Below, piece after piece: positions 7,879-21,638 of a stretch of 64,000 nucleotides of DNA. Made by a program: the position numbers and the translations under genes. The DNA comes from Solobacterium sp. Lineage in GTDB: Bacteria > Bacillota_I > Bacilli_A > Erysipelotrichales > Erysipelotrichaceae. Numbering within the stretch: position 1 is the stretch's first letter; each line of letters starts with the position of its first letter. Location: positions 67-64,066 of the forward strand of contig JAFUCL010000103.1 in the NCBI GenBank assembly GCA_017459725.1, written 5' to 3'. The notes under the pieces are model-generated. The model made no database searches. It worked only from the letters and a program-made list of their open reading frames with translations, and was not told the DNA's origin.

Positions 7879-8118
7879 CCAAATGACCATGCCTTTTCAA
7901 GTACATTCATGAATGTATTTTTGCGGTAAGAGCGCTTTGTTAACGTATTTACAAGGATTTTACATATCATACAGTTTGTAAAGACTGACTGTTTATTACA
8001 TGCAGAGATGGTTAACATCAACCGAATGTGCCTGCCGGAAATCTCCTCTTCCGAAAGGTTCGCAGCCTTCAAAAATCGGCTGTTTTAAAGCGTTTTCGCT
8101 CATACAGGCAAGGAACTG

Positions 8119-8142
8119 AAAAAGGCGGGATTTCCCGCCTTT
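8119..8142 (-). terminator. Intrinsic terminator of the giant surface protein operon
   Basis: AAAGGCGGGA-AA-TCCCGCCTTT hairpin with T-run on the minus strand, 6 nt after the stop codon. Confidence 0.85.
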
Positions 8143-8148
8143 CGGTGT

Positions 8149-11100
8149 TTATTCGGCTGTTTCATTCTCTTCCTGCTTCTCTTCGTTGCGGCCTGCTATG
8201 ATCAGCACCAGCACGATCTGGATGATCAGCAGAATCGCCATCAGGATCGTCCATCTGTCGAACAGACGCATGGTCCTGCTCATATCCTCGGTGAGGATGA
8301 ACACCACCACGGAGATCACGGCAATCAGGATGGAAATCAGCGTATGCGGCAGACTGTTCTTTTTGCTTTCTTTTTCATCTGCTTCCTCCGCCTTGGCTTC
8401 CGGCGCATCCTTTTCTTCCTCATCCTCCGTATCTTTCTTACGGTTGATCAGGTATACCGCAGCCATGAAGACTGCCGCAAATACGGACGCTGCCGCCGCA
8501 ATCAGGTTAATCAGAGCCCAGTAACCGACCGGTGCGTTTACCAGAGGTACTGACGCTTCATCGAGTTCAACAAGTTCTGCTTCCCCGTCGTCGCTGATCT
8601 GTACCTGGGCAAGGACTTCCTTGTCACGGTCAGGATCACCTGTACGGATCTGCTCTGTTTCTGCGGTAACCGTCGGTTCAGCTGTTACGGCTGCCGGTGT
8701 GCCGGTGCCTGCCGTTGGCTGTACCGGTGCAGGTGTCTGCGGTGTTTCACCGCCGCCATCACCAGGTTCTTCCGGTGCTGCCGGTACAACGACAGGTTCG
8801 GCTGCGGCCGGTCTGACCGGTGTATAGACAACCGTCAGTTCCAGATCACGCTCAGGCATGCCGTTCTCATCGGATACAACAGCATCGTACTGTGCTTCCA
8901 TACCCTCAATGTGCGGGGATATGATCGGACCGAATGCCTGTCCCTTCTGATATCTTGCCCGGAACGGATCCGCCAGGCTTCTGCCGGCTTCATCGAGATA
9001 CCGCACTGTCAGGAGATATGTGCCGGTGATTTCAAGCACACCGTTCTCGACTGTTACCGCAAACTGCTCAGTGACATCATTTCCGGAAGGATCCTTCACC
9101 ACGGCCTGTCCCTTCAGTTTGGCAGGCCAGATGCCTGCTTCCCTTGCGGTGACTGCCGATTCAAGACCGCTGACGGTATATGTCACACCGTTTACTGTGA
9201 AGGAATCCGCCGCGAAGCCGCTGACCGTATGTTCTTCTCCGTCATAGAGAACCTTATCGCTGTTGGCCTGCATGGTGATTTCATACTTGGCATCACGGTT
9301 GGTTACATTGATGGTTCCGAATACGGTTGTGAAGATGTAGTTGCTTTCTTTCGTATTGGCTGCTAGCACGGTTGTGAATGAGTTCTCGCTGGTGCCCGGG
9401 AGTGTACGGGCTGCGGACGGGATGAACTGTGCTCCTTCACCGGACGCAAAGCCATCACCTGTTACAGTGACACCGCCGCCCTGCAGAGGACTGCCGTCAT
9501 ACTTGCGGCTGATGACTGCCGAGGTCAGCGTTACGCGTCTGGGCAAAATGCGGAGTATGCCGTTTTCCGTCTTCACCGCAAACTGCGATGTGACATCATT
9601 GCCCGCATCATCAATCACGGACGGTGTGCCCGTTACCGTCACGGCGTATTCACCGGCATCTGTTCCGGATCCTTCACCGCTGAGACCGAGAACCGTATAT
9701 TTCTTTCCTTCGTATTCGAATGCGGTGTTCTTCAGCCCGCTTACGGTATACTCATCACCGCTGTACAGATACTCACCGCTTCTGGCACTTACGGTAACCA
9801 GAATCCTGGCATCACGGTTGAGGACTGCGAGTCTTCCGTATTCCTTGCGGATGTTGTAGTTCTCTTCGCTGGTGCCGTCATTCAGTGTATACGTGAAGAG
9901 GTTTTCACTTTCACCGACAATTGTTCTGCCGCTGCTGAATCTCCACACAGCACCTTCATTCTGTGCGAAGCCGTCACCCGATACTTCCACTGTTTCATTG
10001 GTCAGGCTTCTGCCGTTATAAGGCATTTCGGCTGAACCGGAGGTCAGGACAACGTTTCGCTTATCGATCTTCAGGATACCCGGGACCGTACGCACGATGA
10101 ACTGTGAAGTCACATCATTGCCTTCCGCATCCCTGACGACCGGAGTGCCCGTCACATGAACCGGATAGCTTCCGGCATTGACTGCCGTAATTCCGGCACT
10201 GAGACCGCTCACTTCGAAGACTGCATTTCCAACCGTAACCGCCAGCGCTTCACCATCAGCTGCTCCGTTTTCAGCGGAATAAATGCCGCTGAGTGTATGT
10301 TCGCTGCCGTCATAGAGCACGGTTCCGGAAGGTCCGGCTACGGTGATTTCGTATTTCGCTGCATCCGGTCTGCCTGTTACTGTCAGGATTCCGCATGCGG
10401 TCGTTACCACATAATCACCGGGTCTTGTGCCTTCGTTGAATGTATAGGTAAACGTATTCTCGGAAACACCCACGATTGTGCGGCTGCCCGATACATGCAC
10501 GGATATGCCGTCACCTTCGGCGAAACCGTCACCGCCGTACAGAACGGCAGGATTGCTGAGCGGTGTGCCGCTGTAGATCTTTTCGGCATCCGCAGAGCGC
10601 AGGGTGATTCTTCTCGGCTTAACCGTCAGGGTTCCCGGTTTGACGGTGACGATGAACTGGTCGCTGACATCGTTGTTCATTTCATCCAGGACAACCGGTG
10701 TTCCTTCAGCCGTAACCGGATAGCTTCCGGCGTGTACTGCTGCGGTATTCACCGTCAGTCCCGTCACGGTATAGACATGCGAAGCAATTCCGAAGCGGTT
10801 GCTGCGGAGAGTTGTCACGGCATGTTCATGACCGTCATACAGTGCTTCAGCCGAGGAAGTCTCCACGGTGATTGCATAGCGTGCGCTGCGGTTGACAACT
10901 GTAAGGCTGCCGTATTCTTCACGGACATCATAGTTGGATGCTGCCGTACCTGTGCGCATCGTCCAGGTGAAAGTATTCTTTGAGACACCCGGCAGGGTCT
11001 GGGTTCCGGTCACTGTGAAATCAGCCCCTTCACCTTCCGCGAAGCCGTCTCCCGTTACGGTGACATTATCCGCTTTCAGTTCATTGCCGCTGTATTCCGC

Positions 11101-14100
11101 TTCTGCATCTGCTGATGTGAAGACGAGGCTGCGGCGGTTGATTTCGAGCATGCCGTTCTGCAGGGTAACGATGAACTGCGAGGTTACATCATTGCCGTTT
11201 TCATCCAGTACAGCCGGGGTGCCGGTGATCGTTACCGGATAGCTGCCTGCCATGGTTGCGGCTGCTTCGGCAGTAATGCCGGTGACTTTGTATTCATGTC
11301 CGTCTGCCGTGAAGGTATCCTTCACAAAGCCGGATACGCTGTGTTCCTTGCCGTCATAGAGTGTTTTGAGACCTGCGGCCTGTACGGTTACTTCGTACTT
11401 CGCTTCACGGCTGCGGACAACAAGTCTGCCCTCTTCCTTGCGGATATTGTAGTTGGCAGCCAGGGTTCCGTCTGTGAGTCTGTAGTCAAATGTATTGGCG
11501 CTGCTTCCGGGGATCGTCTGCGAACCGCTGACACTGTACGCTGCACCTTCTCCTTCCGCAAAACCGCTGCCGAGCACTTCCACTGTACTGCATGTCAGCG
11601 GACTGCCGTCATATTCTCTGATCGCCCCGGCGGAGCGCAGAACCACATCCCTGCGGACGATGGTCAGGGTTCCGTCATGGGTGCTGATGGTGAACTGATC
11701 CGTCACATCATTGCCTGCCGTATCCGTCACCTTCGGTGTACCGGTTACTGCGGCCGGATAGATGCCTGCGTTTTTCTCATTGACACTGACGTTCAGACCG
11801 CCAATCTGATATCTGTGACCGTCTGCTACGACTTCGGTGCCGCGCAGTTCCGTTGCGGAATGTTCGCTGCCGTCATAGACATACGAAGCATCAACTGCGA
11901 ATACGTCTGCCGTGTACTTCTCTTCACCGCTGCGGTCCTTGACTTCCAGCACACCGAACTTTCTGCTGATTTCATAGTCATCTGCAGATGTGCCGCTCTT
12001 CAGGAAGTAATCAAAGCGGTTATCGGCGGTACCCGGCTGCGTTCTTGTTCCGGTAACCGTAATCACGGCACCTTCGTTTTCCGCAAAACCGTCACCTGAG
12101 ATAATGACGCCCTGGTTCTCCTGCAGTCTTGTTGTCAGCGGATCACCGTCGAATGTCTTGTATGCACTGAGGGATTCGAGATGCACTTTGCGGCGGTCGA
12201 TTGTAAGCGTGCCGTTCTGCACACTGACCGCAAACTGTTCCGTCACCTCGGCGCCCGTACTGTCAAAGACACGCGGTGTACCGGAAACGGTAACCGGATA
12301 TTCACCGGCATGTACGGCCGTTGCCTTTGCACTGAGGCCGGCAACCGTATACGTCCTGCCGTCGATTTCAACCTTGTCACTGATCAGTCCGCTGACTGTA
12401 TGCGTGGTTCCGTCGTACTTTGTATGCAGGCTTCTTGCACTGACTGTGACACCGTACGGTACATCACGGTTCAGTACGTTCAGTGATCCGAACAATGTAC
12501 TGATGCTGTAATTATCCGCATTGGTTCCTGCATTCATCGTGTAGGCAAATGTATTCTCAGAGACGCCTACAACGTTCTGGCTTCCGGTGACATCAAATAC
12601 AGCCCCTTCACCTGCCGCAAAGCCGTCTCCGCTCACTGTTACCGTTGAAGCTCTCAGCGGTATGCCGTCATATTCCTTCTCTGCCGAGGCACTGCTCAGC
12701 GTGACACTGCGTTTGGCAATATTCAGCTCGCCATCACGCAGATGCACCGCAAACTGTGAAGTCACATCATTGCCGTGCGCATCCGTGATCACCGGCAAAC
12801 CGGTAATCGCAACCGGATATGTGCCCGCATTGACGGCGTTTGCCGAAGCACTGAGTCCGCTCAGTGTATAGGACTGACCCCCGACGCTGAACTTGCTTCT
12901 GGTGAGACCCGTAACGGTATGTTCCTGACCGTCATAGAGGAAGTTTCCTCCTGCTGCAGTCACTGTCATATCGTATTTCACCTTACGGTCCGTAACCCGC
13001 AGGATACCCGGAACAGCCGTAATCAGATAGTCACCTGCTTCTGCTCCGCCTGCCAGTCTGTAGGTAAATGTATTGGCACTGGTTCCTGCCGTCAGCTGGG
13101 AACCGGTGACATCGTATTCTGCATAATCATCACCCGCAAAGCCGTCTCCGGATACGGTGACAGACGGTGCGGTAAGCGGTGAGCCGTCATATTCCTTCTC
13201 CACGGATGCGGAGGAAAGCGTAATGCGTCTCGGTTTGATCTGCAGTGTGCCGCTGATGCGTTCGACATCAAACTGTGCGGTAACATCATTGCCCTCTTCA
13301 TCAAGAACAACCGCATCACCTGTAATCTCTACAGGATATGTACCGGCATGCAGTCCTTCGGCCGCTGCACTGAGTCCGCTGACCGTATACTGTCTGCCGT
13401 TGACACGGAATGTATCCAGCAGAATACCTTCAACGTTCTGTGTTTCACCGCTGTATACCGTTTCGCGGGAAGCTGCCGTAACCGTAATCTTCAGATGTTC
13501 ATCCGCATTGCGGTCGGTGATTGTCAGCGTTCCGTATTCAGAAGAGATGATGTAGTTTGCTGCACTGGTCTGATCCGCCGGCACATATGTGAATGTGTTC
13601 AGCGAAGAGCCCGGCAGAAGCTGTCTTCCGGTCAGGGTGACACTGACGCCTTCACCCTGTACGAAACCGTCACCGCGGATACTGATGCCGCTGTTGTCGA
13701 GATCTGCCGTTGTCAGTGCCGATCCGTCATAGGCCTTGGCAGCCGATGCGGAAACCAGAACGACACTGCGCTTACTGATGGTTAGGGTTCCCTTTTCAGC
13801 AGTGACCGCAAACTGCGATGTGACATCGTTGCCTGCTTCATCCTTCACCACTGCCGTTCCCCTTACAGGGATGGAATAGGTACCGGCATTCTTCTGTTCG
13901 ATGGAAGCACTGAGTCCGCTGATCCGGTAATTGTTGCCGTCCACCGTGAATGTTTCATTCTCAATACCGCCGGCTTTCTGCATTTCACCGTTATAGACCA
14001 GATCATGATCTGCAGCTTTGACGGTTACCGTATACAGCGCATCACGGTTGGTGACGGTCAGTGTGCCGTACACAACGGATACGGTATAGTTTGCTGCATT

Positions 14101-17100
14101 TGTGCCGCTGCGGAAGCCGTAGGTAAACCGGTTCTCGGATGAGCCGACAACCGTCTGTAAACCCGTTACTCTGAATTCTGCGCCTTCACCTGCCGCAAAG
14201 CCTTCACCGCCTACAGTTACATCACTGTTGCGCAGCGGGTTGCCGTTATACGGTCTGGAATCGGAAGCGGAGGTCAGAACGATTCTTCTCTCCCGCACCG
14301 TAAGGATTCCCGATGCATATGCAGGTTCATAGTTCGGATTCTCTGCCCTTAACGAATACACCAGCGTTCCGGCATCGGTGAGTTCGGGTGCTGTATCCGT
14401 CCAGCTGTTTCCTTCATCCAGGCTGTAGGAAAGCACGGTATTCTCAGGAACACCGCCCTGTACACCTGCAGAGAGAGGAATACCGTCATATGCTTTCTGC
14501 CCGGATACTGCACTTACGGAAAGCACGCCTTTGCGGACAGTCAGTTCACTGCCCGTGAATGACACTTCGTAGTTGCCCTGATTCTTTTCATATTCTGCAC
14601 TGATTGCGTAGGTTCCGGCATCTTCACCGGCTTCTCTCTTCAGTGTATAGGCAATTGTATCTCCCTCAAGCACCCCGGTAATCTCTGCTTCAAGTACAGG
14701 ATCAGCACTGCCGAATACCTTCGCGGCAGGCAGTATAGTGATCTGCACCGGACGCGGGGTGATCTCGATCACCGCTTCAGCCTCGGCCGGTTCATAATTC
14801 GGATTCTCTGCCTTGATACGGACTGTCATCCTGCCGGCATCCTTAAGACCCGGAGCTTCTTCACTCCAGGTGCTGCCGTTATCCGTACTGTAGGAAACGG
14901 TTGTTCCTTCGGATACAGATGGCTGTGCGGAAATGCTGTGCACGGCACCGTCATAAACACCGGTATATCCCGATGCATAGATGCTGAGTGTACCGGCCTT
15001 TTCGATGACAAATGAACCGTCTTCAAACGATACCGTATAGTTGCCCTGCACTTCATTGCCTGTGCTGTGAATAACATAGGTTCCTGTTTCTTCGCCGGCA
15101 TCTCTTCTGAGGGTATATGCAATCCGGCGTTCTTCACCCGGTTTACAGCCGGTAATGACAGCCTCCAGGACAGGATCTTTTTCACCGAACGTCTTGCCGC
15201 TGTCTGCAGCTTTGACGGTTACCGGCGCTCTGCTGATTTCAAGCGTTCCGGGTATCGTTTCGGTCACGATATATCTGCCGGTGGTATCGATCAGACCAAT
15301 GGTGCCATCCGCAAACGCATTCGTATATGTGCCGGCATCCGTGCCTGAAACACCGCATACAACACCATTGAAGACAACCCCTGCCGGTGATACCGAATAT
15401 CCGGATATACTGTGTTCACTGCCGTCATAGACGGTGGTGAGGCTTTCCGCCTGCAACGCTGCATTGATGCAGTATTCCATGCGGATCTCCATACCTGCCG
15501 CAGATACGGTTACTGTCTTTGCGCCGCTGCGCGGTGTGTATCCTTCGATCTGTTTCGGGGATACTTCCACCGTTTCACCAAAGCGCTTCATCACGGTTTC
15601 TGCCGGTACGATCAGCTCATCCGTGCCCTGGATATAATGTCCTACCTTGACACTCACCAGACGCTTTGTGTAGTATACACGGATAACATTCTTGCTTTCA
15701 TCCGCATCCACTGTAATAGAGGACGGTTCGGCAGAACTGAATGTGAATCCGGTTCTTGTCTTATCGGTATATGAAGAAATCACGGTTCCGATCGGTGTGC
15801 CGGAAGAAACAATTGTTTCCGACGCATCCATCACACCGTCATAGTAGTATTCAACCCGGTAACGTGACGAAGTAGCCCGGTAGCCTCCGTAGAAAGTTGT
15901 ATTGCCGCTCAGACTTCCGGAGAAATCAGCCGGTACCGTATAACCGGGATCCAGATACCAGCCCGTAAACTCATAGCTGATACCGTTGTAATTCATTGTC
16001 TGCGGAACTGCTTTGGCCGATGGACGCTTTACTGCACTCAGGGCTGTTCCTTCCGTGAATCTCTGCGCATAATCCGTCAGGCCTTCCGGCTGTGAATTGT
16101 ACGGATATTTAACCGCAAAACTGACACTGACATATGACGTCTCGTTGAGAACGCAGATATAGTCCATATGGTACGTGTGGACTTTGCTGACATACGGATT
16201 GTAGGAATTGTATCCGGCATTCGCACCGGATGAAACGGTTACACGGAACGGCTGCAGTGTGTAGTAGCCGTATTCCTCTGCTTCAGGTGATCCGGCCTGC
16301 GCATAATGGTATGTCACACCATCATAGGTCAGATCCGGATACAGTGGTTTGACAGTACCGCCCACCGTATAATCCGTGATGACTGTTCCGAGTGAGAGAG
16401 GACCGGGATCCTTGGCACCGCTGATTTTGGATACACCCAGACCAAACCATCTGGAATCGGCGTTGCTGTTGTTATTGTTGGCATCAGCTCCCGGAATCAG
16501 GCCATAGTGATAAAGATCATATTCACTGAATTCCACGTTTACCGAAGCGGAGGCTGTGTATGTATTGCCGTACAGACTGTCCTCTTCCGGTGCAACCGCA
16601 GCTGTCACAACGGCAGTGCCCGATGAAACAGCGGTTAAGGTACCGTTGTCAACGGTCACAACCGACGGATCGGAGGATGTCCATACAATTGTATTCTCAG
16701 AACTGATATTGTTCAGTTTGGCCTTCAGAACGGCTGTGTCTCCGATGCCCTGCAGGGAGACGGAAACAGGTGAAACGGAAATGGAAGGAACAAGTACGGC
16801 TTCCTGTACATATACCGTATATGTACCGGCAGTCGTATATCCGCTCCAGCCAGAACCTGTCTCAAACGTAATGACGGCAGTGCCTGCATTCAGTGCAGTC
16901 ACAACACCTGCAGATGAGACTTTCGCCACCGATGAATCAGATGATTTCCACTTTTTGCTGCTGTACCACAAACTTACTTCGGGCTGCGGAATCTTCAGGG
17001 TTTCACCCACACGCAGTGTGTATTCCGCGCTGTCGCTCTGTACGGAAGATGTCGTGGTAACAACATAGGTTGAGAATCCGGACGCACTGAAAGAAACCGC

Positions 17101-18309
17101 ATCCGCACTTGCTGAATCGGATACTTTCTCAATACTTCCGCTGTTATCGACATGGAATACCGATGCAGCTTCACCCTGCTTAACACCGGCACCCGTAATG
17201 GATACATGCACCGGTTTCTGCGGCTCTATTTCGCTGCCGTTCCGGTCATGGATTGTAATATCATAGGCAACATAGTCGACCAGCTCATTGTCATCACCGA
17301 TTGCACCCTCAATCGCAGAAAGAACATGACCTGCCGATACGATTCTGACCTGTACCGAAGAATTCTCGGGGAGAGCTCCTTCCGGCGCGTCAATCACGAT
17401 TAAAGCACCATCGGATGCAAATGCCTGCAGTGTCATGGCCGGCATCTTTTCTTCTTCCGGTTCTTCTTCCTCAGGTTCTTCTTCCTCAGGTTCTTCTTCC
17501 TTTTCGGGTTTCTCGGTTTTTTCCGGCTTCTCTGTTTTTTCCGGTTTTGCACTTTCTTCCGGTTCTGCTGTCTCCTCAGGTTCCGCGGTTTCTTCAGGTT
17601 CTGCGGTTTCTTCAGGCTCTGCGGTTTCCTCCGGTTTTGCGGTTTCCTGCGGTTCAGCAGTTTCTTCCGGCTGCGCTGTTTCGGCAGGCTGTTCGCTTTC
17701 CTGCGGTTGTGCGCTTGCTTCCGGAGCAGCTGTTTCTTCAGGGACTGCTGTCTCCTGCGGTACGGTTGTCTCGGCCGGAGCAACTGTTTCTTCCGGAGCA
17801 GGTTCCTGGACAGGTTCCGGTTCACTCACCGGCTCCGCTGCCGGTTCAGGTACGGCTGCCGGTTCAGGTTCAGCGACAGGCTCGGGTTCGGGTGCCGGTT
17901 CCGGAACAGGTTCCTCTGCCGGTACTTCCACGACGACCTCGGGTGCCGGTTCTTCTGCCGGTGCCTCGGGAATCACTTCCGGAGCAGGTTCTTCCGCCGG
18001 TGCCTCTGGAACTACTTCCGGAGCAGGCTCTTCAACCACAGGTTCTTCAACAGGCTGCTCTGCTTCTTCAACTACGATCTCCTGCGGTATTTCCTCAGGA
18101 GCTTCTTCTTCGAGGAACACTTCAATTGTTTCTTCTGAAAGTCCCTCTTCTTCCGTGTATGCTTCATCCGTTACAGCTGTTTCATCCGGCAGCTCCGTTG
18201 CATACAGAATCCGTTCTGTTGAGCTGGACAGTCCGTACGTCACTACGACCACCAAAGCTACAAACAACAGCGTAATCCTTCTAAGAATCTTCCGCATTGT
18301 CTTATTCAT
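8149..18309 (-). CDS. Giant (3386 aa) repetitive cell-surface protein, putative adhesin: signal peptide, acidic E/P/A stalk, Big_2-like, InlB-B-like, MucBP-like and MBG-like domains, three C-terminal TM helices
   Basis: Single 10.2 kb ORF; signal peptide ending ILYA; KWKSSDSSVAKVSSAGVVTAL (Ig group 2); FTGWYLD; repeated YDG..GxLxI modules; three hydrophobic segments in the last 130 aa; no LPXTG. Confidence 0.9.
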   Translation of the reverse strand: MNKTMRKILRRITLLFVALVVVVTYGLSSSTERILYATELPDETAVTDEAYTEEEGLSEETIEVFLEEEAPEEIPQEIVVEEAEQPVEEPVVEEPAPEVVPEAPAEEPAPEVIPEAPAEEPAPEVVVEVPAEEPVPEPAPEPEPVAEPEPAAVPEPAAEPVSEPEPVQEPAPEETVAPAETTVPQETAVPEETAAPEASAQPQESEQPAETAQPEETAEPQETAKPEETAEPEETAEPEETAEPEETAEPEESAKPEKTEKPEKTEKPEKEEEPEEEEPEEEEPEEEKMPAMTLQAFASDGALIVIDAPEGALPENSSVQVRIVSAGHVLSAIEGAIGDDNELVDYVAYDITIHDRNGSEIEPQKPVHVSITGAGVKQGEAASVFHVDNSGSIEKVSDSASADAVSFSASGFSTYVVTTTSSVQSDSAEYTLRVGETLKIPQPEVSLWYSSKKWKSSDSSVAKVSSAGVVTALNAGTAVITFETGSGWSGYTTAGTYTVYVQEAVLVPSISVSPVSVSLQGIGDTAVLKAKLNNISSENTIVWTSSDPSVVTVDNGTLTAVSSGTAVVTAAVAPEEDSLYGNTYTASASVNVEFSEYDLYHYGLIPGADANNNNSNADSRWFGLGVSKISGAKDPGPLSLGTVITDYTVGGTVKPLYPDLTYDGVTYHYAQAGSPEAEEYGYYTLQPFRVTVSSGANAGYNSYNPYVSKVHTYHMDYICVLNETSYVSVSFAVKYPYNSQPEGLTDYAQRFTEGTALSAVKRPSAKAVPQTMNYNGISYEFTGWYLDPGYTVPADFSGSLSGNTTFYGGYRATSSRYRVEYYYDGVMDASETIVSSGTPIGTVISSYTDKTRTGFTFSSAEPSSITVDADESKNVIRVYYTKRLVSVKVGHYIQGTDELIVPAETVMKRFGETVEVSPKQIEGYTPRSGAKTVTVSAAGMEIRMEYCINAALQAESLTTVYDGSEHSISGYSVSPAGVVFNGVVCGVSGTDAGTYTNAFADGTIGLIDTTGRYIVTETIPGTLEISRAPVTVKAADSGKTFGEKDPVLEAVITGCKPGEERRIAYTLRRDAGEETGTYVIHSTGNEVQGNYTVSFEDGSFVIEKAGTLSIYASGYTGVYDGAVHSISAQPSVSEGTTVSYSTDNGSTWSEEAPGLKDAGRMTVRIKAENPNYEPAEAEAVIEITPRPVQITILPAAKVFGSADPVLEAEITGVLEGDTIAYTLKREAGEDAGTYAISAEYEKNQGNYEVSFTGSELTVRKGVLSVSAVSGQKAYDGIPLSAGVQGGVPENTVLSYSLDEGNSWTDTAPELTDAGTLVYSLRAENPNYEPAYASGILTVRERRIVLTSASDSRPYNGNPLRNSDVTVGGEGFAAGEGAEFRVTGLQTVVGSSENRFTYGFRSGTNAANYTVSVVYGTLTVTNRDALYTVTVKAADHDLVYNGEMQKAGGIENETFTVDGNNYRISGLSASIEQKNAGTYSIPVRGTAVVKDEAGNDVTSQFAVTAEKGTLTISKRSVVLVSASAAKAYDGSALTTADLDNSGISIRGDGFVQGEGVSVTLTGRQLLPGSSLNTFTYVPADQTSAANYIISSEYGTLTITDRNADEHLKITVTAASRETVYSGETQNVEGILLDTFRVNGRQYTVSGLSAAAEGLHAGTYPVEITGDAVVLDEEGNDVTAQFDVERISGTLQIKPRRITLSSASVEKEYDGSPLTAPSVTVSGDGFAGDDYAEYDVTGSQLTAGTSANTFTYRLAGGAEAGDYLITAVPGILRVTDRKVKYDMTVTAAGGNFLYDGQEHTVTGLTRSKFSVGGQSYTLSGLSASANAVNAGTYPVAITGLPVITDAHGNDVTSQFAVHLRDGELNIAKRSVTLSSASAEKEYDGIPLRASTVTVSGDGFAAGEGAVFDVTGSQNVVGVSENTFAYTMNAGTNADNYSISTLFGSLNVLNRDVPYGVTVSARSLHTKYDGTTHTVSGLISDKVEIDGRTYTVAGLSAKATAVHAGEYPVTVSGTPRVFDSTGAEVTEQFAVSVQNGTLTIDRRKVHLESLSAYKTFDGDPLTTRLQENQGVIISGDGFAENEGAVITVTGTRTQPGTADNRFDYFLKSGTSADDYEISRKFGVLEVKDRSGEEKYTADVFAVDASYVYDGSEHSATELRGTEVVADGHRYQIGGLNVSVNEKNAGIYPAAVTGTPKVTDTAGNDVTDQFTISTHDGTLTIVRRDVVLRSAGAIREYDGSPLTCSTVEVLGSGFAEGEGAAYSVSGSQTIPGSSANTFDYRLTDGTLAANYNIRKEEGRLVVRSREAKYEVTVQAAGLKTLYDGKEHSVSGFVKDTFTADGHEYKVTGITAEAAATMAGSYPVTITGTPAVLDENGNDVTSQFIVTLQNGMLEINRRSLVFTSADAEAEYSGNELKADNVTVTGDGFAEGEGADFTVTGTQTLPGVSKNTFTWTMRTGTAASNYDVREEYGSLTVVNRSARYAITVETSSAEALYDGHEHAVTTLRSNRFGIASHVYTVTGLTVNTAAVHAGSYPVTAEGTPVVLDEMNNDVSDQFIVTVKPGTLTVKPRRITLRSADAEKIYSGTPLSNPAVLYGGDGFAEGDGISVHVSGSRTIVGVSENTFTYTFNEGTRPGDYVVTTACGILTVTGRPDAAKYEITVAGPSGTVLYDGSEHTLSGIYSAENGAADGEALAVTVGNAVFEVSGLSAGITAVNAGSYPVHVTGTPVVRDAEGNDVTSQFIVRTVPGILKIDKRNVVLTSGSAEMPYNGRSLTNETVEVSGDGFAQNEGAVWRFSSGRTIVGESENLFTYTLNDGTSEENYNIRKEYGRLAVLNRDARILVTVSARSGEYLYSGDEYTVSGLKNTAFEYEGKKYTVLGLSGEGSGTDAGEYAVTVTGTPSVIDDAGNDVTSQFAVKTENGILRILPRRVTLTSAVISRKYDGSPLQGGGVTVTGDGFASGEGAQFIPSAARTLPGTSENSFTTVLAANTKESNYIFTTVFGTINVTNRDAKYEITMQANSDKVLYDGEEHTVSGFAADSFTVNGVTYTVSGLESAVTAREAGIWPAKLKGQAVVKDPSGNDVTEQFAVTVENGVLEITGTYLLTVRYLDEAGRSLADPFRARYQKGQAFGPIISPHIEGMEAQYDAVVSDENGMPERDLELTVVYTPVRPAAAEPVVVPAAPEEPGDGGGETPQTPAPVQPTAGTGTPAAVTAEPTVTAETEQIRTGDPDRDKEVLAQVQISDDGEAELVELDEASVPLVNAPVGYWALINLIAAAASVFAAVFMAAVYLINRKKDTEDEEEKDAPEAKAEEADEKESKKNSLPHTLISILIAVISVVVFILTEDMSRTMRLFDRWTILMAILLIIQIVLVLIIAGRNEEKQEENETAE
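9025..14292 (-). repeat. Ten tandem intragenic repeats of about 173 aa, each made of two MBG-like modules
   Basis: Ten GNDVTxQF-type motifs at about 13823, 13282, 12762, 12242, 11702, 11183, 10666, 10110, 9591 and 9072 (spacing about 517-556 bp), each preceded by LTSASxxKxYDG..GDGFAxGEG..ENTFxY. Confidence 0.9.
17449..18190 (-). repeat. Low-complexity Glu/Pro/Ala stalk with short tandem repeats
   Basis: At least six imperfect 18-bp units (ETAEPE) at 17563-17670; two exact 15-bp units ttcttcttcctcagg at 17461-17490; three EEPAPEV-type units. Confidence 0.85.
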
Positions 18310-18484
18310 ACGAGTCCTCGTTTCTATGATCTTTATCGTTCATACTGTTCCGGTAAGACTTGATTCTCTGTTTAATACTTTTCTCTTCCTGACGGTAGCG
18401 AAGATAACGCAGAATAAATGACACAGCCAGCAGTGCAATGCCCAGAATGAGCAGAATATCTGAAATCCATCCCGTCCGCATCAT
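18302..18484 (-). CDS. Single-TM microprotein (about 60 aa)
   Basis: AAGGAGGT RBS; start overlaps the upstream stop (ATGA); TM ILLILGIALLAVSFIL then basic tail; stop overlaps the giant gene start (ATGAATAA). Confidence 0.7.
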   Translation of the reverse strand: MMRTGWISDILLILGIALLAVSFILRYLRYRQEEKSIKQRIKSYRNSMNDKDHRNEDSYE

Positions 18485-18621
18485 CCTAAACCTCCTTCCG
18501 GATACTTCCGCCGGCATTCCTCCCGGTACCGTCTGCTCTGCACTTCATGATAAATGCGGCCGGCCAGGAAAATGATGACGGCAAGCACCGCACATAACAA
18601 AGCCCATACATCAGCGCTCAT
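18481..18621 (-). CDS. Single-TM microprotein (about 46 aa; alternative start 18627)
   Basis: GAAAGCGGG RBS-like; TM VWALLCAVLAVIIFLAG then R-rich tail; start and stop both overlap neighbours. The longer 114-aa version in the ORF track overlaps the upstream gene and is unlikely. Confidence 0.65.
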   Translation of the reverse strand: MSADVWALLCAVLAVIIFLAGRIYHEVQSRRYREECRRKYPEGGLG

Positions 18622-19021
18622 GATCATCACCCGCTTTCCGGGTATATGCCAGTTCAGCTTCAGCAGCTTCCCTGCGCAGCGTAAAGAGTTTCTGGTCTGC
18701 ATGGTAAAAATACACGGTATAGAACACCGAACCCAGCAGCAGCACGATTCCCATGAGCAGATGCTCGGTTCCGTTTCTGCCCGGTGAATCCGGTGAAGCC
18801 GCCAGCGGAACTTTTTCCTCTTCAATATCTTCGGCCGGAATATCCTCCACGACCGTGATCAGCAGCTCCTTCTCAGGTTCCGGTGATGGTGTTGTTTCGG
18901 CTGTTTCCTCCGCCGCAACGGTGATCTGCGAAGGCAGAGATATCATCACACTCATCGCAAAAAACAGACACAATGCGGTCAGTGCGGTCAGTAGATATCT
19001 TTTTATTCTGTTCATGTTCAT
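18611..19021 (-). CDS. Small secreted/membrane protein (136 aa) with DIEEEKVPLAASP motif and C-terminal TM
   Basis: Signal peptide ending TVAA, short acidic ectodomain, VPLA motif, TM LLMGIVLLLGSVFYTVYFY, charged tail. Confidence 0.75.
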   Translation of the reverse strand: MNMNRIKRYLLTALTALCLFFAMSVMISLPSQITVAAEETAETTPSPEPEKELLITVVEDIPAEDIEEEKVPLAASPDSPGRNGTEHLLMGIVLLLGSVFYTVYFYHADQKLFTLRREAAEAELAYTRKAGDDHER

Positions 19022-19025
19022 AGGC

Positions 19026-20225
19026 TTACCTGCTTCTCTGTTTCAGTGTAAAAGCAATATGCAGTGTGTTCCCGATATGATCCGGAATATAAACATCACT
19101 GCTTATTTGCGGGTATTCAAAGACGATTTCACCTGTTTCACTGTCATACCGCAGCGGTTTGATGATGGTGCCGCTGATATCCCTGGCATAAACACCGCGG
19201 TAATTGACACCTATGCCTTCATCCTTTACGTACAGAATGACTTCACCGTTTTCCGTACGGCTCTCGCTCAGCACCGGTCCTTTCGCATCAACTGCGGTTA
19301 CCGGATACACGGTATGGGTATTCTGTCTGTTGATCAGTTCCACCTCAATCGTCATATCCGCATTCCGGATCGGCTCAACGGTAAAGATTTTTGCATCCGC
19401 TTCATAGACCGGAAGACTGTGACTGCGGATTCTGGCAGTGACACGCCTGACCGGCAGGAACGACTTCACCGAGATCGTGTAAACAGGAAGACCCCTGCTG
19501 CCAAGATCCACGGAAGATACATCGTATTCCGGCAGAATAAACAGCATCGGCAAAGCCAGGAACAGTATTCCCGCTCCGACCGTTATTCTCTTCTGCAGGG
19601 AAAAGCGCTCTTTCCGGTAAACCGCATAGGAAGACAAAGCTTCCATCGGCACCGTATTTGCCTTCCAGCCGCAGATATCAAACGCATGGCTCAGCGTCTG
19701 CAGCAATCGGACGGGATCGGCCTTTTCCGTATGCACGAAAGGAATACTGTCTGTAACGGATACAGTACTGCGTTTGCCTGCAGAGATGCCGAGATGGCGG
19801 TCTGCCGATTTCAGATACCGCTTCACCATGGACCGGCTCACATTGAGCAGATCTGCGATTAAGGAGTTGCTCATGTTCTGTCTGTACTTCATAACAGCCA
19901 TCTGTGATTCACTCAGCGGCAATGAAAGCAGACGGATCATTTCCTCATCTTCCGTATCCGCACGTTCCATGGCACAGCGAAGACACTGGCGCAGTGCCCA
20001 GGGCAAAAACAGTTCGGGATTCTGCAGTGATGGAATTCCCTTCAGAATCATCACAACCGAACTCTGCATGAGCTCCCACACGGTTTCCCGGTCGTCACTC
20101 AGATGTCTCAGATAGATATAGAAACGCTCTGCACAGGCCGCATACAGCTCCGCAAAGGAATTGCTGCTGCCGGTCATAGCCTTACGGACTATATCATTCA
20201 GATATGCCTGGTCCAGTCTCTCCAC
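19026..20225 (-). CDS. ECF sigma-70-like protein fused to a TM helix and a predicted extracellular beta-rich domain
   Basis: Sigma-2-like SFAELY..F..W and sigma-4-like LLSLP..MS..IA.LL.VS...VK..L; TM ITVGAGILFLALPMLFIL; C-terminal VDAKGPVL (Ig-like); GTG start 20225 after GGGAG (track start 20273). Confidence 0.72.
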   Translation of the reverse strand: MERLDQAYLNDIVRKAMTGSSNSFAELYAACAERFYIYLRHLSDDRETVWELMQSSVVMILKGIPSLQNPELFLPWALRQCLRCAMERADTEDEEMIRLLSLPLSESQMAVMKYRQNMSNSLIADLLNVSRSMVKRYLKSADRHLGISAGKRSTVSVTDSIPFVHTEKADPVRLLQTLSHAFDICGWKANTVPMEALSSYAVYRKERFSLQKRITVGAGILFLALPMLFILPEYDVSSVDLGSRGLPVYTISVKSFLPVRRVTARIRSHSLPVYEADAKIFTVEPIRNADMTIEVELINRQNTHTVYPVTAVDAKGPVLSESRTENGEVILYVKDEGIGVNYRGVYARDISGTIIKPLRYDSETGEIVFEYPQISSDVYIPDHIGNTLHIAFTLKQRSR

Positions 20226-20316
20226 ACTGTTCTCCCGTCTCCTGTATATCATATATCGCAGGCGAATAATCATAAGTGCCTGCTGTTACCGGTAAAATTG
20301 ATGCTTTCTGTGACTG

Positions 20317-21000
20317 TTAAGCGGATGCACGCCGGTCTGACAGTGCCACAAGCTCCGCCAGTGAGGCTGCCTGTTCCTTCTGCTGCAGAGCTGTTCCGGC
20401 ATGGTATTTAATAGCCGCATCGGGATGCGCCTCGTTATAGTGATTGATTCCCGTTTCTACAGCTTCCAGAAATCCGGCTATCCGCTTCTCCGTACTTTCA
20501 CGGAAAATCGCAACAAACTTGTTGCCGCCGTTTCTGCCCAGGAAGCAGATTCCCCCAGCCGCATTGCTGAGGGTCTCCGAGAATGCCTGAATCGCCGCAT
20601 CTCCTCCCGCATGACCGTGCGCTTTGTTGATCTCCGACAGATTGAGCAGATCAAGGGTTACACAGCCCATATCCGCCGGTATGACGCCTTCCGCAAACCT
20701 CTGGATATAAAGGTCCACACTGTAACGGTTGGCAATACCGGTCAGGGCATCGGAATACACCGCATGGTCAAGCTCCGAATTCTCCCGGCGCAGATCTGCA
20801 TACGAATTGAAGTCATAGAACAGAAAAGCAAACGAAATGCCGAGCACAACCCACAGCAAAAGTGCCAGCATACGTATACTGCGGTCTGCCGCAATCATGC
20901 TGTACAGTTCATGATTGTTGAAAATAATCAGCAGTCCTGCCGCCGTACACAATACCAGCAGAATCAGCTGTACGGTCTTGATCACATCAAAACGCTTCAT
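20317..21000 (-). CDS. Two-TM GGDEF-domain protein with degenerate active site (GGNKF)
   Basis: DALTGIANR, INKAHGHAGGDAAI and GRNGGNKFVAIF; two N-terminal TM helices; start overlaps the lepB stop (ATGA). Confidence 0.85.
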   Translation of the reverse strand: MKRFDVIKTVQLILLVLCTAAGLLIIFNNHELYSMIAADRSIRMLALLLWVVLGISFAFLFYDFNSYADLRRENSELDHAVYSDALTGIANRYSVDLYIQRFAEGVIPADMGCVTLDLLNLSEINKAHGHAGGDAAIQAFSETLSNAAGGICFLGRNGGNKFVAIFRESTEKRIAGFLEAVETGINHYNEAHPDAAIKYHAGTALQQKEQAASLAELVALSDRRASA

Positions 21001-21554
21001 GAATCACCACCTGCTTCCCGCATCAGCCTGCGCAGACTGCCGCCGCTGTACACAAGAATAATCCTTCCCTTGATCTGCCGCAGATTCACTTCACCGAACG
21101 TCCGTGAATCAAGCGAAACGGTGCGGTTATCTCCCAGCACAAAGACATTGCCTTCCCTGACCGCATACGGGAATATGACTGTTCCCGTCTCGGTCTCCGT
21201 CTGTCCGCGCGCCCACGGTTCATCCAGCACCTCACCGTTGACAATAACACTGCCATCCGCCAGATCCACCGTATCACCGCCCTGTGCAATCACCCGCTTG
21301 ATATAGTAATCACCGGAAGGAACACGCATGGAAACCACATCACCGTAACGGTAATCTTTCCCTGTACGCAGATAGACGACAATATCACCGTCCATAAGAT
21401 TCGGATACATCGACTCACCGCCGACAACCGATATACCGATGACAAAACGGAATACAATGACCAATGCTAAAATAAGCACAATAAAGAAAAGCGAATCCCG
21501 CAGCCAGTCGAGCTTCAGACCATTGTACCGTTCCAGTAATCTTCTGTTTCTCAC
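20997..21554 (-). CDS. lepB: Signal peptidase I (S26)
   Basis: Catalytic GESMYP (Ser) and YIKRV (Lys), GDNRxxSLDSR box; one N-terminal TM; start uncertain (GTG 21554 favoured, track 21620). Confidence 0.92.
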   Translation of the reverse strand: MRNRRLLERYNGLKLDWLRDSLFFIVLILALVIVFRFVIGISVVGGESMYPNLMDGDIVVYLRTGKDYRYGDVVSMRVPSGDYYIKRVIAQGGDTVDLADGSVIVNGEVLDEPWARGQTETETGTVIFPYAVREGNVFVLGDNRTVSLDSRTFGEVNLRQIKGRIILVYSGGSLRRLMREAGGDS

Positions 21555-21560
21555 ATATAA

Positions 21561-21566
21561 ATTATA
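21561..21566 (-). promoter_or_regulatory. -10 box (TATAAT) heading the lepB-to-giant-protein operon
   Basis: Perfect TATAAT in the AT-rich gap after ftsZ, 6 nt before the in-frame GTG; no strong -35. Confidence 0.5.
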
Positions 21567-21638
21567 CTTTGGACAAGCATAATCGAAAACGGATTCGCAC
21601 ATAAAAAACCGCGTTTTCACGCGGTTTGTGAGTAATCA

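Follow-up and report, generated by a model that had tools for sequence, protein, structure and literature searches.

A reading frame joining an ECF sigma-like half to a membrane anti-sigma half, and its relatives in Clostridia

The fused gene and its predicted operon

The 64,000-nucleotide stretch of DNA analyzed here, hereafter the window, carries on its minus strand a reading frame that joins sigma2-like and sigma4-like domains, a short cytoplasmic segment, a TM helix and two extracytoplasmic Ig-like domains in one chain (Table 1). The longest form of this frame, 19026..20273, begins with ATG and encodes 415 aa; homolog N-termini (M-E-x-L-D-Q) and a GGGAGA box 5 nt upstream favor the GTG at 20225 as the start.

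The fused gene sits in a predicted operon whose other genes encode a signal peptidase, a protein with a degenerate GGDEF domain, a trio of small membrane proteins and a giant adhesin; all would be co-transcribed. A terminator-like hairpin follows ftsZ, and a TATAAT box lies just before the start of the signal peptidase gene, whose true start is probably the GTG near 21554. The GGDEF-like neighbor matches PF00990 (59 bits) and departs from the GG(D/E)EF pattern of a diguanylate cyclase active site; the guanine-binding Asp of IND is not retained, and no RxxD occupies the inhibitory-site position. A scan of the whole window at Rfam gathering thresholds returned one tRNA only, with no c-di-GMP riboswitch or other RNA regulator near the operon.

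Table 1. Parts of the fused gene and neighboring genes in the window
Feature	Coordinates	Strand	Basis or remark
Whole ORF (sigma, anti-sigma, TM, two Ig-like domains)	19026..20225	-	399 aa; stop 19026-19028
Sigma2-like domain, residues 1-89, four helices, degenerate region 2.2 motif	19959..20225	-	Profiles, model, alignment
Residual sigma2-sigma4 linker, residues 90-93 (DTED), sole non-helical interdomain residues	19947..19958	-	AF2 model, alignment
Sigma4-like domain, residues 94-146: short helix, LPLSESQ helix, HTH	19788..19946	-	Profiles, model
Junction, residues 147-170, low model confidence, variable length	19716..19787	-	Model, alignment
Anti-sigma-derived cytoplasmic segment, residues 171-212, two helices	19590..19715	-	Alignment, model, conservation
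Single TM helix, residues 213-233, predicted N-in/C-out	19527..19589	-	Hydropathy, model
Two extracytoplasmic Ig-like beta-sandwich domains, residues 234-310 and 311-399	19029..19526	-	Model, Foldseek, motifs
Two-TM protein, degenerate GGDEF domain (RNGGNKF)	20317..21000	-	Upstream neighbor of fused gene
Signal peptidase I (S26)	20997..21620	-	First gene of operon; overlaps GGDEF start by 4 nt
p136: signal peptide, acidic region, VPLAASP motif, C-terminal TM helix	18611..19021	-	Starts 4 nt past fused-gene stop
p48, single-TM mini-protein	18481-18627	-	Frame overlaps p60 and neighbors
p60, single-TM mini-protein	18302-18484	-	Frame overlaps p48 and neighbors
3386-aa surface protein, Big_2 and MBG_2 repeats, C-terminal FILTED anchor	8149..18309	-	Last gene of operon

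The single frame could be an artefact, that is two genes merged by a sequencing or assembly error, or the decaying remnant of a gene, and the sigma half does miss curated HMM cutoffs. We give this explanation almost no credence. Across 18950-20350, contigs of four independent gut metagenomes show substitutions but not a single indel, and the one-ORF architecture is found again in 29 genomes and over 100 protein clusters (120 among the matches listed), with homologs 42-50% identical to the window protein over its full length. Omega lies between 0.08 and 0.18 across every domain, and the model is confident (pLDDT 90). An error joining two genes, which the initial annotation had named as grounds for abandoning its reading, is thus contradicted by the assemblies and by the recurrence of the architecture. 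The runs that contain the window sequence are DNA metagenomes only.

The N-terminal half had been annotated initially as sigma-like, with sigma2-like and sigma4-like segments only about 12 residues apart, and both statements hold. NCBIfam TIGR02954 matches residues 1-89 (E 1.2e-8), the family profile matches SigW across sigma2 and sigma4 (E 2.4e-13), and Foldseek returns sigma structures. The two segments are separated by ERADTEDEEMIR, and in the AF2 model only about four residues of this interval (90-93) are non-helical. Sigma2 and sigma4 are present without sigma3: the model comprises four helices, a 4-residue loop and four helices, and the profiles give no sigma3 match. Curated sigma models are not reached, in that Sigma70_r2 (Pfam) does not match the window protein, TIGR02937 gives 26.9 bits (cutoff 42.9), and Sigma70_r4_2 gives 18.1 bits on sigma4 (cutoff 25.7). 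The usual DAED-like motif indeed reads TVWE, where unfused relatives have LAQD; more fully, region 2.2 is TVWELMQSS in the window and LAQDALQET in those relatives. Overall, the window sigma domain is 41% identical to the sigma of an unfused relative.

Behind sigma4, about 70 cytoplasmic residues, one TM helix and about 165 beta-rich outer residues had been estimated; we find 67, a single hydrophobic segment at 214-232, and 166 residues modeled as two Ig-like beta-sandwich domains. The hydrophobic segment has a mean Kyte-Doolittle value of 2.27, and four K/R on its N side predict the N-in, C-out orientation. The Ig-like domains (pLDDT 90) match Ig domains of SiiE, SraP and LdtMt2 in Foldseek, and the ectodomain carries the conserved motifs RGLPVY, LPVYEA, EPxRNG, VDxxGP, GIGVDY and PDHIGNTLH. 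Ahead of the TM helix, the anti-sigma part consists of about 45 ancestral cytoplasmic residues forming two helices, and residues 171-212 contain the best-conserved cytoplasmic motif, NTVPxEALSSYAVYRKERFSLQ. This segment has no Cys/His zinc motif and differs from class I anti-sigma domains, which comprise four helices over about 80-90 residues and often an HxxxCxxC zinc motif. Neither the segment nor the ectodomain has any match to Pfam, NCBIfam or PDB sequences.

Split and fused relatives

Related Clostridia loci (n = 83) occur in two forms, 54 of them split into two adjacent genes and 29 fused into one ORF. Split loci encode a canonical ECF sigma of about 186 aa, followed by an anti-sigma-like protein (about 240 aa) whose short cytoplasmic part leads through a TM helix into two Ig domains. 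The two forms are orthologous and can be aligned through the junction, where residues 147-170 of the window protein correspond to the former sigma C-terminus, the stop codon and the anti-sigma N-terminus. What follows sigma4, unrecognized in the initial annotation, is the ancestral anti-sigma factor of this protein, which most relatives still encode in a gene of its own. The initial view of a membrane-tethered ECF-like protein akin to sigma/anti-sigma hybrids is thereby borne out, with sigma, anti-sigma and TM helix in one chain that is orthologous to a split pair. In ten split loci only an in-frame stop lies between the two genes, and the fusion probably arose via stop-codon loss. The converse, that split loci are broken assemblies of a fused gene, is unlikely given 54 independent genomes in which the reading frames of the two genes often differ.

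The neighborhood is shared as well. A GGDEF-like gene directly precedes the sigma or fused gene in 82 of 84 related loci, and 67 of its 83 orthologues have GGNKF in place of GGDEF. Most loci also have a signal peptidase I gene linked to the module.

One unfused sigma scores above the curated cutoffs (TIGR02937, 68.1 vs 42.9; Sigma70_r2, 24.5 vs 24; Sigma70_r4_2, 46.1 vs 25.7), and the ancestor was therefore a real sigma factor. The fused clade of 29 loci, which includes the window, is monophyletic and nested among split forms, and its short linker and its loss of the DAED-like motif are derived. More specifically, counted from the conserved W of region 2.3 to the LP of sigma4, the median spacing is 62 for split and 32 for fused forms, with 27 in the window; along with the region 2.2 motif (DAED..QE type) that binds the beta-prime subunit of core RNA polymerase, the sigma half of the fused clade has lost about 30 linker residues. 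PDB structures of ECF sigmas, some of them bound to RNA polymerase, have 26-35 more residues between sigma2 and sigma4 than the fused-family profile. Fusion with a short linker (31-44) is also seen in other deep-branching lineages, and in 13 representatives sigma4 is lost and sigma2 alone is joined to the anti-sigma part. Degeneration may have preceded fusion rather than followed it, because a split sister locus, L029, already has a short linker and a decayed motif.

Conservation differs between the two forms. The mean frequency of the commonest residue falls in the region 2.2 helix from 0.74 (split) to 0.43 (fused), making it the least conserved helix of the fused clade, and is 0.68 and 0.53, respectively, in region 2.3/2.4; in the second anti-sigma helix it rises from 0.70 to 0.86. 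Pairwise identity among split forms is 62% for sigma2 and 38-40% for the Ig domains, an order that is reversed among fused forms (44% and 56%). For sigma2, dN/dS is 0.06 among split and 0.18 among fused forms, both rough values with dS saturated in many pairs, and dN(sigma2)/dN(Ig) is 0.37 vs 1.35. Effectively, the sigma domains of the fused clade evolve about three times faster than unfused ones while purifying selection is kept (omega about 0.18). Because of this selection and the confident fold, the sigma-like domain retains some role.

Promoters, polymerase binding and the possibility of release

In unfused relatives, an ECF-type promoter, TGGACC-N17-CGTCTT, precedes the giant-adhesin operon; the motif TG(G/A)(A/G)CC-N17-CGTCTT (or aCACTTtAT) lies 30-130 nt upstream of the adhesin/p131 gene in at least 27 split loci. 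Not one of the 29 fused loci has this promoter at the right position (about 21 kb searched per related genome), nor does it occur in the intergenic regions of the window. A relocated or re-specified target promoter could lie beyond the local sequence that was searched. Loose ECF-promoter matches number 34 in the window; one of them, at 19263-19237 (-) in the Ig2 coding region, combines an imperfect -35 with a spacer that is 1 nt too short, and was dismissed as chance. A generic sigma-70 promoter scan of 7900-22000 gave 14 sites vs 12.0 +/- 3.2 in shuffled sequence, and thus no excess.

The structural comparison is based on an AF2 model of residues 1-235 (pTM 0.80). The best Foldseek matches are anti-sigma-bound sigmas (SigW/RsiW, CnrH/CnrY [4cxf] and SigK/RskA) at an rmsd of 8-9 A; RNA-polymerase-bound sigmas align to the model at 27-30 A, and PhyR/NepR structures are among the weaker matches. 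From the pTM and these matches, we infer an intramolecular clamp formed by residues 171-212. In ECF sigmas, the sigma2-sigma4 linker spans RNA polymerase and substitutes for region 3.2 (PMC7826278); with 27 residues from W to LP, against a median of 62 in unfused forms, the window protein falls short of the length required. By known holoenzyme geometry, the roughly four remaining linker residues would leave both RNA polymerase docking sites out of reach. A linker too short for docking would imply that the protein is no longer a canonical transcription initiation factor.

We therefore favor, at a probability of about 0.6, a natural fusion in which an ECF sigma and its cognate membrane anti-sigma factor share one chain and the sigma half is now a pseudo-sigma. 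Most likely, the product is a membrane-locked pseudo-sigma/anti-sigma protein and not a releasable sigma.

A precedent for release is IutY of Pseudomonas putida (ECF243), the product of a fused sigma/anti-sigma pair (PMC8999054) in which the sigma is FecI-like and the anti-sigma FecR-like. Like the window protein, IutY combines in one chain an ECF sigma at the N-terminus, an anti-sigma segment in the cytoplasm, a single TM helix and an extracytoplasmic sensor. A functional one-component sigma of this type would sense a signal through the Ig domains, be cut at site 1 and site 2 and trimmed, and transcribe as a freed sigma. This would fit the known hybrid architecture, the purifying selection on the sigma domains and the sigma4 recognition helix of the window, SRSMVKRYLKS, which is nearly identical to that of unfused, functional-looking relatives. 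Site-1 cleavage would possibly fall to the co-encoded signal peptidase I, by analogy with RsiV, whose site-1 protease is signal peptidase I; the linkage of the two genes in most loci and the N-in single-TM topology, which is the one that signal peptidase cleaves, are in keeping with such a step. We nevertheless judge release improbable. Some four linker residues are left, against about 30 in RNA-polymerase-competent sigmas; the region 2.2 core-binding motif is gone, in what has become the least conserved part of the domain; all curated sigma thresholds are missed; the relatives' ECF promoter is missing from 29 of 29 fused loci and from the window; and sister architectures dispense with sigma4 altogether. 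Furthermore, no AxA-like small-residue cleavage motif after the TM helix is conserved in the family; a candidate signal peptidase site past the TM helix in the window, with the cut after VSS in VSSV, is not kept in the family and was discarded.

IutY itself differs in several respects. Prc and RseP release from it a fully competent sigma, whereas here the sigma half is degenerate and no target promoter was found. The outer domain of IutY is FecR-like and is paired with a TonB-dependent receptor in a Gram-negative envelope, whereas Ig-Ig domains in a Gram-positive cell are found here, with an anti-sigma segment of the short two-helix type. Two alternatives had been offered initially, a proteolytically released active sigma and a degenerate sigma repurposed as a DNA-binding or scaffold protein; the linker, region 2.2 and the loss of the promoter disfavor the former, and repurposing is favored, although its DNA-binding variant finds no direct support in a conserved target site or in the ECF promoter of unfused relatives, which the window does not contain.

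DNA binding by the window sigma4 may nonetheless persist, since its recognition helix is almost unchanged from that of unfused relatives. In a ToxR/CadC-type regulator, the sigma4 HTH would bind DNA in place at the membrane while the Ig domains sense an outside cue. Besides the intact, ancestral-like helix of the window, one fused subclade has a conserved direct repeat, AATGACGG-N5-6-AATGACG, ahead of a TATAAT box between the fused gene and p131, as such a regulator might use. However, the fused gene and p136 are just 4 nt apart in the window, which has no such repeat; the recognition helix varies in its N-terminal half across the fused clade; and the compact model packs sigma4 on sigma2 and the anti-sigma helices, a state in which the DNA-binding surface is usually occluded. 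We consider a regulator of this type highly improbable.

Degenerate ECF-like domains are also known as mimics that bind anti-sigma factors. PhyR, of the general stress response of Alphaproteobacteria, has an ECF-derived sigma2 and sigma4 fold, acts off RNA polymerase and binds an anti-sigma factor. A comparable decoy would have the pseudo-sigma occupy the anti-sigma helices until a signal displaces it, whereupon the anti-sigma would capture a free ECF sigma encoded elsewhere, or the reverse. The weaker PhyR/NepR fold matches, the anti-sigma helix as best-conserved cytoplasmic element and a sigma-like domain under selection without RNA polymerase features would agree with this. Yet a same-family sigma paralog was sought in the window and in the fused loci and none was found, the fused loci showed no ECF-type target promoter, and a covalent tether disfavors displacement by a free competitor. 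PhyR itself is soluble and receiver-fused and binds a separate NepR after phosphorylation, whereas here the anti-sigma is covalent and membrane-anchored. We consider a decoy very unlikely.

Proposed role, known systems and significance

In the single-chain pseudo-sigma/anti-sigma reading, the sigma-like domain would be held intramolecularly at the membrane by the two anti-sigma helices (171-212), in a compact 'inhibited' conformation, and would be kept to bind or structurally support the anti-sigma module. The juxtamembrane helix, the TM helix and the Ig-Ig ectodomain would now carry the function under selection. The protein probably acts in the membrane together with the co-conserved pseudo-diguanylate-cyclase (GGNKF), and the signal peptidase, the three mini-proteins and the giant FILTED adhesin are likely further partners. 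We tentatively hypothesize, at well below even odds, that the fused protein and the pseudo-cyclase form a non-transcriptional membrane module, a former signaling pair put to new use, with a structural, sorting or quality-control role for the adhesin and the mini-proteins, and that recurrent fusion with loss of the linker or of sigma4 is an exit route of an ECF pair from transcription control.

Other sigma factors resemble parts of this arrangement. The actinobacterial groups ECF48, ECF52 and ECF53 (e.g. SCO4117) likewise have a C-terminal extension with an anti-sigma-like part, TM helices and an extracytoplasmic domain, and proteolytic activation has been proposed for them. Their extensions carry a zinc-finger (ZAS-type) anti-sigma, whereas no such Cys/His motif is present here; their sigma cores have the features of genuine ECF sigmas, unlike the fused proteins, and ECF52 has a proline-rich and carbohydrate-binding ectodomain in place of Ig domains. 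The closest parallels for the anti-sigma segment are CnrH-CnrY (class II) and BldN-RsbN, with a short cytoplasmic segment of about 45 residues and about two helices before one TM helix, even though a PDB sequence comparison detects no similarity to any solved anti-sigma. SigV-RsiV (Bacillus, Clostridioides) and SigI-RsgI (Clostridium thermocellum) share a Gram-positive ECF or ECF-like sigma, a single-pass anti-sigma and a ligand-sensing ectodomain; RsgI systems control surface-protein genes, as the unfused relatives apparently do. Both differ in being two-gene systems with other ectodomains and without a degenerate GGDEF partner.

A literature search on ECF sigmas with a degenerate GGDEF protein, and on the FILTED domain, returned nothing relevant, and the main text of the ECF classification paper does not mention GGDEF. 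The pseudo-GGDEF protein, ECF sigma and Ig-Ig anti-sigma form a regulatory module of gut and rumen Clostridia that has not been described before. In a public source, at least one protein of the family is labeled 'sigma-70 family RNA polymerase sigma factor', a function that the fused forms probably lack. One family presents a graded series, from two-gene ECF pairs with a promoter, through pairs separated by a single in-frame stop and full fusions with shrinking linkers, to fusions of sigma2 only. The single-chain form is also a ready construct for determining the structure of a short, unclassified anti-sigma segment bound to a sigma. Finally, the predicted regulon of the pseudo-GGDEF/ECF sigma/anti-sigma module is a giant adhesin, and the module therefore bears on the control of bacterial attachment.

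A sigma factor joined to its own anti-sigma

Relatives of the window protein were sought by scanning one genome per species and were found in 118 species, all gut or rumen Clostridia (Lachnospiraceae, Anaerovoracaceae/Mogibacterium, Eubacterium and Oscillospiraceae), a few of them isolates (e.g. Lachnospiraceae bacterium FE2018, Hespellia stercorisuis, Laedolimicola intestinihominis and Mediterraneibacter agrestimuris). We classified 83 loci, the window among them. A single ORF is present in 29, including the window; 54 carry two genes, encoding a sigma of ~186 aa and then a protein of ~240 aa that has ~45 residues in the cytoplasm, a single TM helix and the two Ig-like domains also present in the window protein. 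In 10 of these 54, only a lone in-frame stop lies between the two genes. The unfused sigma passes TIGR02937 (68.1 bits), Sigma70_r2, Sigma70_r4_2 and Sigma70_ECF, its region 2.2 reads D-E-x-L-A-Q-D-A-L-Q-E-T-Y, and judged from its sequence it is a textbook ECF sigma. The second gene has the position of a cognate anti-sigma gene and the topology of an anti-sigma. Since the split relatives carry an ECF sigma followed by a gene so placed and shaped, the window protein is a sigma joined to its own anti-sigma. When a neighbour-joining tree is built from the anti-sigma part, fused forms make up one clade nested among unfused forms.

Two loci show further features downstream of the anti-sigma gene: a second, apparently interrupted sigma copy of the same family just beyond it in M. 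agrestimuris (L054, 3591-4161), and a ~170-nt stretch (AAAGCTTGATAGCGTTTTATTCAAACCCGAAGTTTGC...) present twice in tandem in L031 (~11344-11600), through duplication or as a repeat introduced in assembly.

Curated profiles score the window protein weakly: Pfam Sigma70_r4_2 is sub-threshold (18.1 bits vs a cutoff of 25.7), Pfam Sigma70_r2 gives no match, the ECF superfamily model TIGR02937 reaches 26.9 bits, below its cutoff of 42.9, and NCBIfam TIGR02954 matches the sigma2 part (E 1.2e-8). Despite these scores, homology to ECF sigmas is secure at the sequence level, because a profile built from 120 family members matches Bacillus subtilis SigW (E 2.4e-13) over both domains, as it does several further ECF sigmas. 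An AlphaFold2 model from these 120 sequences has a mean pLDDT of 90; Foldseek likens its N-terminal part to ECF sigmas crystallized with their anti-sigmas and its C-terminal part to tandem bacterial Ig-like domains (SiiE, SraP, LdtMt2 N-terminal domains).

The initial annotation had correctly described a 12-residue spacer, TVWE at the DAED position, a single TM helix and ~165 beta-rich residues, which form two domains in the model. Hydropathy places the TM segment at 214-232, and K/R residues on its N side imply an N-in, C-out topology. The ~70 cytoplasmic residues noted after sigma4 were likewise found, ~24 of them junction and ~42 the ancestral anti-sigma segment. It had also named a refuting case, namely two genes joined through a sequencing error. 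This artefact is extremely improbable and is contradicted by contigs of four independent gut or rumen metagenomes, which span 18950-20350 with 12-13 substitutions and zero indels, and by full-length homologs: a protein search returned 181, and the 120 listed are 385-464 aa long with 42-50% identity and 98-100% query coverage.

Coordinates of the features discussed (residue numbering follows the 399-aa form)
Feature	Location	Strand	Remarks
Window ORF	19026..20273	minus	415 aa when started at ATG
Window ORF, preferred start	GTG at 20225	minus	399 aa; all homolog N-termini agree (M-E-x-L-D-Q); GGGAGA box upstream
Four helices	residues 6-89		AlphaFold2 model
Loop, 4 residues	residues 90-93		AlphaFold2 model
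Four helices	residues 94-145		AlphaFold2 model
Low-confidence stretch	residues 147-170		AlphaFold2 model
Two helices	residues 171-185 and 194 onwards		AlphaFold2 model; second continues into TM helix
Two beta-sandwich domains	C-terminal part		AlphaFold2 model
Two-TM protein with degenerate GGDEF domain	20317-21000	minus	directly upstream of fused gene
Surface protein, 3386 aa	8149-18309	minus	acidic Pro/Glu-rich N-terminal region, Big_2 and many MBG_2-type repeats
Sigma2-only fusion	L084 10001-10999		Hespellia stercorisuis; also P0178, P0193, P0220 and 10 further representatives
ECF-type motif	L056 9101-9070	minus	upstream of adhesin or p131 gene
ECF-type motif	L021 6008-6036	plus	upstream of adhesin or p131 gene
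ECF-type motif	L072 6482-6510	plus	upstream of adhesin or p131 gene

Degeneration of the sigma half in the fused clade

Across the fused clade, the sigma half is degenerate. Measured between the conserved region 2.3 W and the sigma4 LP motif, the median distance is 62 residues in unfused and 32 in fused forms, and the window has 27. ECF sigmas in the PDB, those solved on RNA polymerase among them, have 26-35 extra residues between the domains relative to the fused-family profile; the sigma2-sigma4 linker is known to make contact with RNA polymerase much as region 3.2 does (PMC7826278). The region 2.2 motif is not recognisable in fused forms, and its helix shows the biggest drop in conservation (mean commonest-residue frequency 0.74 unfused, 0.43 fused), followed by region 2.3/2.4 (0.68 to 0.53). 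Conservation is unchanged in the N-terminal and LPLxESQ helices and goes up in the juxtamembrane anti-sigma helix, from 0.70 to 0.86.

Among unfused forms, pairwise identity is highest in sigma2 (62%) and lowest in the Ig domains (38-40%), an order that is reversed in fused forms (44% vs 56%); with Ig divergence matched (50-60%), sigma2 identity is 0.77 unfused and 0.40 fused. Nei-Gojobori estimates, rough and with dS saturated in many pairs, give omega of ~0.06 (sigma2) and 0.05 (sigma4) unfused vs 0.18 and 0.17 fused, and dN(sigma2)/dN(Ig) of 0.37 vs 1.35. On these omega values, the sigma domain of the fused clade is estimated to be about threefold relaxed, yet under selection. Judged as a functional ECF sigma, the window protein departs on five tested features; its architecture is that of a sigma/anti-sigma hybrid.

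A search of 1.84 billion representative proteins with the anti-sigma module returned 402 homologs at E <= 1e-3. The best 150 comprise ~17 members of the window's fused clade, ~6 deep-branch fused forms (W-to-LP 31-44) whose nearest relatives are mostly unfused, 13 proteins (318-349 aa) that lack sigma4 and have sigma2 joined directly to anti-sigma, TM and Ig-Ig, and otherwise stand-alone anti-sigmas or fragments. To our knowledge, a sigma2-only protein cannot serve as a sigma factor, so fusion here accompanies loss of sigma function. In L029, an unfused sister, the linker is already short (39), the motif has decayed, and p131, the small gene heading the adhesin operon in relatives, follows a promoter of housekeeping type; decay-first and fusion-first orders are therefore both possible.

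Target promoter, operon and partner genes

Unfused loci carry a bipartite motif of ECF type, TG(G/A)(A/G)CC, 17 nt, CGTCTT (aCACTTtAT replaces CGTCTT in the deeper clade), 30-130 nt upstream of the giant surface-protein gene or p131. At least 27 unfused loci have it in the right place and orientation, and it predicts a regulon for the unfused sigma. In L021 it additionally precedes the signal-peptidase-GGDEF-sigma operon; other GGDEF-first operons have housekeeping-type TGnTATAAT boxes. The fused clade has lost this target promoter, with the motif at promoter position in 0 of 29 fused loci and nowhere between genes in the 64-kb window. The fused gene directly abuts p131 in 11 of the 29 (window gap, 4 nt). 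The window operon runs signal peptidase I, GGDEF-like gene, fused gene, mini-protein genes p136, p48 and p60, and the 3386-aa adhesin, with gaps or overlaps of at most ~90 nt; by gene arrangement, the adhesin operon now forms the end of a single compact transcription unit.

A direct repeat, AATGACGG-N5-6-AATGACG, is conserved between fused gene and p131 in nine loci (L003, L007-L011, L013, L015, L030), lies ~13-15 nt ahead of a TATAAT-like box and looks like a putative activator binding site; in the window, whose genes abut, it therefore has no counterpart. Directly after ftsZ, a terminator-like hairpin, AAACCGCG-TGAA-AACGCGGTTT and then a T run (window 21606-21627, minus), overlaps the GTG assigned mechanically as the start of the signal peptidase ORF (21540-21620 region). 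The GTG near 21554 (VRNRRLLERYN...) is the probable true start; it sits only 9 nt past a TATAAT box and leaves almost no leader.

In 82 of 84 loci, from split and fused clades alike, the gene directly upstream of the sigma gene or fused gene is the degenerate-GGDEF gene. Its active-site motif is kept as RNGGNKF (GGNKF in 67 of 83), the RxxD inhibitory site is absent and the guanine-binding Asp is lost. The system appears to include this conserved pseudo-cyclase as an obligate third component. In split loci, ~20 nt past the anti-sigma gene (e.g. L056 11316-16044), a conserved array encodes a lipoprotein resembling transglutaminases, a T2SSF platform protein, a DUF4860 protein, several small proteins resembling pilins, and a PilT-like T2SSE ATPase. 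The array, which resembles a type IV filament system, is apparently co-transcribed with the GGDEF, sigma and anti-sigma genes; the window lacks it.

The C-terminus of the 3386-aa protein matches NCBIfam NF052597, 'FILTED domain' (113 bits, literal FILTED present), a domain for which we found no paper. It (~8149-8650) and p136 (18611-19021) end alike, with an acidic stretch, (V/I/T)PL(A/V)xxP, a TM helix and a basic tail, an observation for which L057, L062, L064, L067, L075 and L078 are also listed; adhesins of the deeper split clade end differently, in (V/I)PLAG...CCILHFLLML. The common ending may serve to sort or anchor these proteins, perhaps in connection with the signal peptidase I encoded alongside them.

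Proposed role of the fused protein

A second model, of residues 1-235, has a pTM of 0.80, which indicates that sigma2, sigma4 and the anti-sigma helices form one confidently packed assembly. Its best fold matches are the anti-sigma-bound sigmas SigW/RsiW, CnrH/CnrY and SigK/RskA (rmsd 8-9 A); RNA-polymerase-bound sigmas align at 27-30 A. These matches suggest an intramolecular clamp.

We favour, at a probability of about 0.6, a membrane-held former sigma that no longer serves RNA polymerase and is kept as partner of the anti-sigma. The tethered anti-sigma helices would hold the sigma-like domain permanently at the membrane, where it would stop serving RNA polymerase and be retained (omega ~0.18) as a folding or binding partner of the anti-sigma segment. 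The juxtamembrane helix, the TM helix and the Ig-Ig ectodomain would carry the selected activity and work with co-conserved membrane partners. The best argument for the other readings is the window's nearly ancestral sigma4 recognition helix, SRSMVKRYLKS. Set beside the shortened linker, the unrecognisable region 2.2 and the lost promoter, a sigma still releasable in the manner of IutY is unlikely. A role as a decoy, in the manner of PhyR, for some separately encoded sigma is improbable, and a ToxR-like tethered DNA binder marginally more so.

PhyR has a known degenerate sigma-like domain that binds an anti-sigma, as the sigma half of the window protein would. Sigma/anti-sigma fusions are known too, in IutY (PMC8999054) and ECF48/52/53, and the window protein has the fusion itself in common with them. 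New are the Gram-positive family, the short two-helix anti-sigma segment (its sequence matches no solved or curated anti-sigma domain in PDB sequences, Pfam or NCBIfam), the Ig-Ig ectodomain, the apparently obligate GGNKF partner and the connection to giant adhesins. Also new is that split, fused and truncated states coexist, so that the sigma half is seen decaying.
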